From the IMG/VR virus record IMGVR_UViG_3300027804_000001, positions 224,001-288,000 of that record: a stretch of DNA of 64,000 bases. One strand, 5' to 3'. This document shows positions 23,271 to 24,668 of this stretch, piece after piece. The notes under the pieces were generated by a model, which made no database searches, was not told the origin of the DNA, and was given only the letters and a program-made list of their open reading frames with translations. The DNA is from a virus (taxonomy: Duplodnaviria > Caudoviricetes). The translations under genes and the position numbers were made by a program. Every line of letters starts with the position of its first letter. Position 1 is the stretch's first letter.

Positions 23271-23457
23271 ATCCTAATATCATAAGTATTTTACTTACTA
23301 TAGATATTTTCTTTTTAGGTTTTTGGATAAACATTTTAGATTTATCCCAATTTTTTATTTCATCAATCATCAGATTCTTGTGATTCTGAATCTCCGTCTT
23401 GTCCTTCTCCATCTCCCTGTTCAACCAATCCGATGCTTGTTGTATCCTCTTGTCCAT
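23254..23457 (-). CDS. hypothetical protein
   Basis: 67 aa; start uncertain (95-nt overlap with the upstream gene if the first ATG is used). Confidence 0.6.
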   Translation of the reverse strand: MDKRIQQASDWLNREMEKDKTEIQNHKNLMIDEIKNWDKSKMFIQKPKKKISIVSKILMILGYGKKR

Positions 23458-23818
23458 CTTTGTTCAATAGGTTTATATCTTTCAATTTATCTAAACTTTG
23501 ATTTTTAAATAACTCTTCAAGTTCTTTTACTTTTTGTTGGAATAATTTTTGTTTCTCTTCTTCCTCTTTGTTTAATTTTATAATTTCAGAAGCACATGCA
23601 AATACCACATCATAACCATTTTGTGTTGCACCACCAATTAATGAAACCAATGTGAATTTATCATTCTTGTCTTGGATTTTTACTTTTATTGTACGGTATG
23701 GTTTTACGATATCTTCATACAACCAAGTCAATGGTAATTTAATATCTAAACTTACATTATTTTCAATTTCTCTTAAAGAGAAAAAATATGGTTTCAATGA
23801 CTTTATTACTTCAAACAC
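23363..23818 (-). CDS. hypothetical protein with coiled coil and acidic tail
   Basis: 151 aa, GTG start. Confidence 0.7.
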   Translation of the reverse strand: MFEVIKSLKPYFFSLREIENNVSLDIKLPLTWLYEDIVKPYRTIKVKIQDKNDKFTLVSLIGGATQNGYDVVFACASEIIKLNKEEEEKQKLFQQKVKELEELFKNQSLDKLKDINLLNKDGQEDTTSIGLVEQGDGEGQDGDSESQESDD

Positions 23819-23843
23819 AAATTCAAATTAAAATATAGGTTAT

Positions 23844-24002
23844 TATATACGAAACGGCAAAATACAAAAAGATTTTTTCCGTCTCTTTCAGTTTTAATTG
23901 TTCAGGATTTTCTCTTGTTAATTCATAAACGAATTGAAAAATAAATCTTAAAACAAATACGATACTAAGAACAAAAATGAAAAGTTTAATTTCGTTAATC
24001 AT
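23844..24002 (-). CDS. 52 aa small membrane protein (not in ORF track; possible frameshift near 3' end)
   Basis: MINEIKLFIFVLSIVFVLRFIFQFVYELTRENPEQLKLKETEKIFCILPFRI; overlaps the Hc1 gene stop. Confidence 0.6.
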
Positions 24003-24174
24003 GTTTTTTTGTTTCTTCTAAAATTTCTTTACGATAAATCGCAATTAGGAGTTTAATTTCTTGAGCATATTTTCTTGCTCGTATTGATGCACTTCGATTT
24101 CCCTTCTCGTAAACTTTCTGGGTGTCTACTGACATCTTCTCAACCAACTCCTTAATTTTTCTTAAGGTTTCCAT
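23995..24174 (-). CDS. histone H1-like protein, Hc1 family (59 aa, not in ORF track)
   Basis: METLRKIKELVEKMSVDTQKVYEKGNRSASIRARKYAQEIKLLIAIYRKEILEETKKHD fits the Hc1 pattern KGNK.A..R.RK...E......YRK. Confidence 0.75.
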   Translation of the reverse strand: METLRKIKELVEKMSVDTQKVYEKGNRSASIRARKYAQEIKLLIAIYRKEILEETKKHD

Positions 24175-24212
24175 ATTATTTCGGTTTTTAATACTAATAT
24201 ATGGAAAAATAT

Positions 24213-24668
24213 CTACTTTTTCAAGTTTTGATCTAACAATTTGTAAATTTCGGTTAACATGTCTAATTCAGGCCTGGATTTCTTATGTTGAAATGTGAAT
24301 AACTTGTTGAAATATTCTTTAATTTTGGGTGTTCCTCCCTCCAAATTGATGATATAAAATGCTTCAATATAGAAGTTAAAAAAATATTCCTTATGTCTTC
24401 CTGATTCTTTAAATACTATTCTTTCTTTTGAGAAGTTTTCAATGGTTTTATTCCAACACCATGTAAAATGACCCATCTGGTCTTTTTCATATTCAAAAAC
24501 ATCGGGTCCTAAATAAGTGTTCTCTATTAACTCATGTAATGAAATGAGAAAGTCGTGAAAAAGTTCAATTTTCTCACGACTTATATTGTAAGCCCTATAC
24601 CAAACATCAATTTGATTTTTGTAACTCTCAGATGAGATAAACTCTAAATAACTCTCTTTATTTTCCAT
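24213..24668 (-). CDS. hypothetical protein
   Basis: 151 aa ATG ORF preceded by a TATATT element. Confidence 0.75.
   Translation of the reverse strand: MENKESYLEFISSESYKNQIDVWYRAYNISREKIELFHDFLISLHELIENTYLGPDVFEYEKDQMGHFTWCWNKTIENFSKERIVFKESGRHKEYFFNFYIEAFYIINLEGGTPKIKEYFNKLFTFQHKKSRPELDMLTEIYKLLDQNLKK

Follow-up and report, generated by a model that had tools for sequence, protein, structure and literature searches.

The open reading frame (ORF) at 23995..24174 on the minus strand of the 64,000-nucleotide stretch of viral DNA analysed here (the window) is a genuine, selected gene, which encodes a stand-alone Hc1 N-terminal domain. It starts with ATG, and its basic product of 59 amino acids matches the Pfam family PF07432 and ends without a tail, and we put at roughly 0.5 the probability that it is a small, dimeric nucleic-acid-binding protein acting inside infected cells ahead of the late phase. 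That it binds nucleic acid, when it is expressed and what it acts on are what we infer, and the fold and the dimer are predictions obtained by modelling.

A conserved gene for a stand-alone Hc1 domain

The 59-aa ORF includes both strings quoted in the earlier note, KGNRSASIRARK and YRKE, and the properties of its product (7.05 kDa, pI 9.6, net charge +5), together with a helical model, bear out the description of a basic ORF at 23995-24174. When the protein was compared with the Pfam Hc1 profile PF07432, a check that had been proposed along with the assignment to the Hc1 family, residues 1-57 were aligned with positions 1-57 of the 57 in the profile with an E value of 2.7e-15 and a score of 56.4 bits, the curated gathering cut-off of this family being 23.5 bits, and the assignment is confirmed by this match over the full profile. 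The window protein has every signature residue of PF07432 (GN..A..R.RK and a later R, located in the turn and the second helix). No PHROGs family was found for the 59-aa protein. The gene had been called hidden and was said to be missing from a list of ORFs; public gene callers do predict it and label it PF07432, and the word hidden therefore reflects an ORF-length cut-off and not a matter of biology.

Comparison of 60 distinct orthologous Hc1 genes gave a median pN of 0.083 and a median pS of 0.727, the latter being near saturation, and a median dN/dS of about 0.055 was obtained from unsaturated pairs. It is evident that the gene is under strong purifying selection. In a scan of IMG/VR, 109 stretches were found to encode a close relative of the protein, and 80 of these were compared. 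The same order of genes, namely a gene for a protein of 151 aa, the Hc1 gene, a gene for a small hydrophobic protein and a second gene for a protein of 151 aa, is common to all 80 loci, which continue with a 77-aa gene and a 212-aa gene on the opposite strand, followed in most cases by genes for Dam, NusG and an AAA ATPase. The Hc1 proteins encoded at these loci are 76-92% identical to the window copy (median 83%), whereas the medians for the neighbouring genes range from 48 to 79%, and in 73 of the 80 loci Hc1 outranks all other genes of its block in conservation. More distant representatives, at 51-66% identity, retain the Hc1 gene between its upstream gene and the genes for the membrane protein and the second 151-aa protein. 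Random ORFs of about 59 aa are frequent, this one is short and the genome is AT-rich, so that a fortuitous frame or a functionless, decaying remnant could be considered; however, the Pfam match, the low dN/dS and the gene order fixed over 80 viral loci, two contigs of metagenome-assembled genomes (MAGs) and the more distant relatives examined refute this explanation, whose probability is negligible.

Three relatives of 288-324 kb, judged 92-97% complete, have one Hc1 copy each, and no second copy was found in the 64,000 nt of the window; the Hc1 gene is a single-copy core gene of this phage group. A separate observation concerns a 248-kb contig of a related phage, assigned to a Flavobacteriaceae MAG in binning, on which a second, very divergent Hc1-domain ORF (L092, G001:C1:232754-232912; 34 bits) is located about 88 kb from the orthologue.

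Among 185,579 species-representative genomes, the phage protein found only two matches, both on MAG contigs with the phage gene order, and because of this gene order both are likely to represent phage DNA that was mis-binned, and not copies belonging to hosts. Recent capture from a host, to which many homologues of 80-95% identity might have pointed, was rejected, as all those examined sit in the phage gene order.

The earlier note had taken the DNA to come from a phage, and this setting is corroborated by the fibre genes, by the conserved viral gene order and by a contig of about 333 kb. Nearly all long ORFs of the window are on one strand, its G+C content is about 30%, and it encodes collagen-like tail-fibre proteins, an SbcC-like nuclease subunit, a NusG-like factor, a Dam methylase and a sigma factor. 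Eight contigs, of which the longest has 333,612 bp, encode an identical Hc1 protein, which is found in metagenomes of lakes and other waters. When 12 kb around the Hc1 gene were searched by megablast against GenBank phages, no match was obtained, and the SbcC-like protein is matched only by distant phages, at 25-29% identity, which indicates that no sequenced isolate is close.

A predicted dimer and a missing tail

When the window protein was aligned with 60 homologues, R34 proved to be invariant, and at least 90% of the rows share K20, N26, A29, R32, K35 and R48. A model calculated with AlphaFold2 from this 61-row alignment is a hairpin of two helices (residues 2-24 and 27-58) with a mean pLDDT of 97.6. 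Searches of PDB sequences and with Foldseek revealed no solved relative and only generic helical hairpins with E values above 0.5. For the homodimer a score of 0.72 was predicted, compared with 0.00 for the best of three controls; the mark set for this score was attained for 20 of 30 proteins whose structures had been solved as pairs and for 1 of 23 solved as single chains. Three runs share at least 97% of their contacts, with a partner pLDDT of at least 89, and prediction thus supports pairing of the phage protein. The predicted contacts (11-11, 40-40, 4-18 and 48-34) correspond to an antiparallel four-helix bundle with the turns at opposite ends.

The Hc1 domain would accordingly be expected to fold as a two-helix hairpin of which two copies pack antiparallel into a four-helix bundle, and the conserved basic cluster near the turn (K20, R32, K35 and neighbours) would be exposed at each end of the dimer. 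In the model R34 and R48 are within the dimer interface, and K20, R32 and K35, which are not listed there, are near the hairpin turns. Part of the basic signature, namely R34 and R48, may thus serve pairing and not contact with DNA. The median pI is 9.5-9.7 in all clades of Hc1-domain proteins, and in the phage clade most positions are invariant, many of them outside the predicted interface. The uniform basic charge and the conserved basic residues that appear exposed in the model make nucleic-acid binding plausible.

The earlier note had gone further and proposed, by reference to the chlamydial protein, that the phage uses this protein to compact or silence DNA. Passages of PMC2848022 and PMC3469542, which cite Pedersen 1996 and Remacha 1996, assign DNA binding by chlamydial Hc1 to its Lys-rich C-terminal part and describe the conserved N-terminal part as the site of dimerisation. 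By sequence comparison the phage protein is only the N-terminal domain of chlamydial Hc1: it shares the homologous PF07432 domain with Chlamydia trachomatis Hc1 (HctA), and its predicted pairing fits the reported dimerisation site, but it stops at residue 59, two residues beyond the domain, and has no Lys/Ala-rich C-terminal tail. It is also encoded by a phage gene and not by a developmental one. With the HctA equivalog model NF051889 of NCBIfam, residues 2-56 were aligned with positions 5-58 of 121 at a score of 23.6 bits, compared with a cut-off of 100. All 52 distinct orthologues have 59-70 aa and no Lys-rich extension, and longer forms are limited to three, each of them a single sequence on a short contig.

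Hc1 reportedly resembles eukaryotic histone H1 by virtue of its Lys-rich tail, a point ascribed to Hackstadt in 1991. As for the eukaryotic linker histones H1/H5 themselves, they have a winged helix, in contrast to the two-helix hairpin modelled for the phage protein, which has no Linker_histone domain (a Pfam scan at E ≤ 10 gives only Hc1). As the tail is missing, DNA condensation cannot simply be transferred from Chlamydia to the phage protein; nothing in the analyses supports compaction or silencing of DNA, and the absence of the Lys-rich DNA-binding tail weakens this proposal, which is a reasonable guess built on the wrong half of the chlamydial protein. In the literature searched no paper was found in which DNA binding by a tail-less Hc1-domain protein had been tested, nor any other experiment on the function of the domain alone, the bacterial proteins included.

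The target might also be RNA, in which case the protein would be a regulator that binds mRNA or rRNA and modulates translation, and would not act on DNA structure. Chlamydial Hc1 is reported (Pedersen 1994) to interact with both RNA and DNA and to inhibit translation in vitro; the phage protein is modelled as a basic helical hairpin, and its nearest structural look-alikes include hairpins of ribosomal proteins, at non-significant scores. However, the activity in Chlamydia belongs to the full-length, tailed protein and the fold matches are generic, none of them at E ≤ 0.001. We regard an RNA-binding regulator as quite improbable.

The Hc1 domain in Bacteroidota and in other large phages

Short homologues lacking the Lys-rich tail had been said to occur in Bacteroidota, and this turned out to be correct: of the 400 other Bacteroidota genomes in the sample, 230 have the Hc1 domain, usually within an open frame of 58-100 aa, and Bacteroides thetaiotaomicron, which was part of the control set, was positive as well. 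These chromosomal proteins resemble the phage protein in belonging to the 58-100 aa class, in the signature and in their basic charge, but they score 75-95 bits with PF07432 whereas the phage clade scores 55-60 bits, and their identity to the phage protein is only about 40-50%. One MAG, whose record is titled Flavobacteriaceae, includes a related phage contig; of 150 other genomes sampled from its family, only 9 have the domain.

These counts bear on a further possibility raised in the earlier note, interference with a homologous host protein. The phage protein would form mixed dimers with the Hc1-family protein of its host and so disable or redirect it. Heterodimers make this mechanistically possible, the N-terminal domain of Hc1 being the dimerisation part and a homodimer being predicted; more than half of the sampled Bacteroidota genomes have the domain, and surface positions are so tightly conserved within the phage clade that a constant partner is suggested. 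Against mixed dimers stand the low frequency of the domain in the family just mentioned, the limited identity of the bacterial copies, and the position of the phage clade apart from both bacterial clades in a tree, at weak support. We consider this mechanism improbable.

The tree was a quick maximum-likelihood reconstruction from 172 rows and 68 columns, in which most forks are weak. The phage clade and unlabelled relatives form one group (SH-aLRT 85), separate from both bacterial groups, and the copies from other large phages are found at different positions: that of LR756500 in the group of chromosomal Bacteroidota copies, those of the Lak megaphages in the Flavobacteriaceae group, and that of Synechococcus phage S-SRM01 elsewhere. 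This topology suggests several separate acquisitions of Hc1 by large phages. The Hc1-like ORFs of the Lak phages, which infect Prevotella (L137, L138), join the copies from 12 Flavobacteriaceae loci (L093-L104) with an SH-aLRT of 99, apart from the remaining Bacteroidota copies, a grouping that may be an artefact of the 68 columns.

In GenBank, S-SRM01 has a coding sequence annotated as "histone H1" (QPX48246.1, 62 aa), and unannotated Hc1-like ORFs were detected in Lak megaphages, LR756500, LR745206 and LR756502. All of these are tail-less ORFs, of 62-68 aa where read out, from phages of 240-642 kb. With 36-46% identity to the phage protein and their different places in the tree, they probably represent separate acquisitions, and their neighbouring genes differ from those of the phage locus. 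In S-SRM01 (L135, 2971-3335) a 59-aa ORF follows the "histone H1" coding sequence and overlaps it by 4 nt, an arrangement similar to that of Hc1 and the small ORF in the window; its product, however, is hydrophilic and is not a membrane protein.

That large phages carry an Hc1-family gene is already known from the annotation of S-SRM01 and from Perez-Hernandez et al. 2025 (Arch Virol 170:253, PMC12619734), who described PF07432 in aquatic jumbo "moraphages"; besides that report, no paper naming PF07432 was found in the literature searched. The moraphages are 25 phages of 200-307 kb with predicted hosts in the Bacteroidota or Flavobacteriales, and their core genes include those for a sigma factor, glutaredoxin, exonuclease subunit 2 and Clp (PMC12619734). 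The PF07432 gene is reported from only four complete moraphage genomes, and its product was treated as a homologue of linker histones and suggested to condense DNA in the capsid (PMC12619734). Like the moraphages, the window phage is an aquatic jumbo phage with PF07432, a sigma factor, glutaredoxin, an SbcC-like exonuclease subunit and ClpP near Hc1, and by these shared genes it probably belongs to the moraphage lineage or adjoins it. It differs in size, at about 333 kb compared with 307 kb for the largest moraphage, and, whereas the moraphage gene was reported from four complete genomes, the gene analysed here is a single-copy, best-conserved gene for the N-terminal domain in 80 viral contigs. 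What is new is this single-copy and best-conserved status, the tail-less architecture with a predicted antiparallel dimer, and a conserved promoter-like site of non-late type.

Expression signals, neighbouring genes and possible roles

The promoter-like site, TTGAAA-N17-TATATT, was located by a consensus scan at 24196..24224 on the minus strand and ends 21 nt before the Hc1 ATG. The 38-nt spacer ahead of this ATG is nearly invariant among relatives, although synonymous sites are near saturation. In 58 of 62 distinct upstream regions, TTGAnn or TTTAnn is followed after 16-18 nt by TAYAYT, and the site ends 17-26 nt before the ATG; as the first hexamer is inside the last codons of the upstream gene in most loci, only the second element is free of coding constraint. 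An alternative reading of the site, TTG-N20-TAnnTTnG, holds in 30 of the 62 upstream regions. This form is close to that of promoters in Bacteroidota. The conserved site is a candidate for a promoter of the Hc1 gene itself. Overall, the sigma-70-like scan was not above chance in the region (28 sites, 26.7 expected), and the exact word found upstream of Hc1 is not repeated in the window above chance, so that no regulon could be defined.

A second motif, TATTTAT[AT], was taken as the late motif. In positions 1-64000 of the window the coding (minus) strand has 19 copies and the plus strand 3, and the motif is found no more than 70 nt upstream of 13 of 58 minus-strand genes, among them the genes for the three fibres and for the NusG-like factor, as well as several genes at 43-58 kb. 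These counts support its designation as a late motif. It is absent in front of the window Hc1 gene, and only 3 of the 62 orthologous upstream regions have it; with the late motif missing, the Hc1 gene would appear to lie outside late transcription and not to be transcribed with the late structural genes.

Both findings bear on the DNA-condensing role in the capsid mentioned above, according to which the protein would be made late, enter the head and neutralise or compact the genome of about 330 kb. The protein is small and basic, the role has been proposed in print for moraphages (PMC12619734), and the GenBank phage records in which an Hc1-like ORF was detected are all 240 kb or longer. However, bacterial-type Hc1 copies are also encoded on 51 IMG/VR contigs of 4-290 kb and of unspecified completeness, and the link between Hc1 and genome size is therefore not taken as established. 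In addition, the motif of the fibre and other structural genes is rare upstream of Hc1, and the putative non-late transcription that this suggests counts mildly against packing; the Hc1 gene is located amid regulatory genes and outside the head module, and its product has no Lys-rich tail. Packing in the capsid is in our judgement unlikely.

Directly downstream, at 23823..24002 on the minus strand, the ORF list and a hydropathy profile reveal a small protein of 59 aa with two hydrophobic segments, whose gene, starting with ATG, shares its first 8 nt with the end of the Hc1 gene. In 76 of the 80 loci a homologue with 36-64% identity begins at or just past the end of Hc1, and this succession together with the 8-nt overlap suggests that the two proteins are translationally coupled.

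The module is flanked by two conserved genes without a known family. The upstream gene (24213..24668, minus; 151 aa), directly 5' of Hc1, is present in 80 of 80 loci with a median identity of 63% and in the distant relatives L140 and L142-L144; its product is modelled as all-helical with a pLDDT of 88.5, and neither a fold match in PDB nor a Pfam or PHROG family was found for it. Fourteen residues of this protein are invariant, many of them aromatic (W23, H67, F68, W70, Y105, F124 and Y142 are among the fourteen), and within its coding region, at 24550-24582 on the minus strand, an inverted repeat of 13 pairs is followed by a T-rich stretch and resembles a terminator. The downstream gene (23363..23818, minus; 151 aa) is likewise present in 80 of 80 loci (median identity 65%) and in L140, L143 and L144, and no Pfam or PHROG family matched its product. 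The C-terminal tail of this protein is strongly acidic and rich in Asp, Glu, Gly, Gln and Ser, and its gene is the second after that for the basic Hc1 protein. Matches of both 151-aa proteins in the Atlas were unconvincing, and candidates of the CobT type were rejected as they share too few features. The two 151-aa neighbours give no functional clue to the Hc1 gene; those nearby genes that have known families encode regulators and DNA enzymes, namely a sigma factor, NusG, a Dam methylase and an AAA ATPase.

In the reading that we prefer, a small, basic and dimeric nucleic-acid-binding protein, a conserved non-late promoter of its own would drive transcription of the Hc1 gene along with the gene for the small membrane protein. 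The product, a protein of the nucleoid-associated type, would bind and perhaps bridge nucleic acid in the infected cell, and it would act on phage or host DNA in the pre-late phase and not as a packing protein of the capsid. A much bolder version, which we offer as an improbable extension, is that the stand-alone Hc1 domain is a DNA-bridging antiparallel dimer with a basic tip at each end, for which a lysine tail is not needed, that several unrelated lineages of large phages have taken it up independently to organise their very long genomes in the cell, and that in this group it has become part of a fixed four-gene module whose membrane protein could tether DNA to the membrane.

Over half of the sampled Bacteroidota genomes encode tail-less Hc1-domain proteins, which are also met repeatedly in very large phages. 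The name "histone H1" in genome annotations and the treatment as linker-histone homologues in the phage paper of 2025 are analogies with a chlamydial protein whose DNA-binding part these proteins lack. The phage copy, which is short, very strongly conserved and confidently predicted, is a handy test of whether the domain serves DNA, RNA or only pairing, and an answer on the role of the domain would confirm or correct a widespread annotation.
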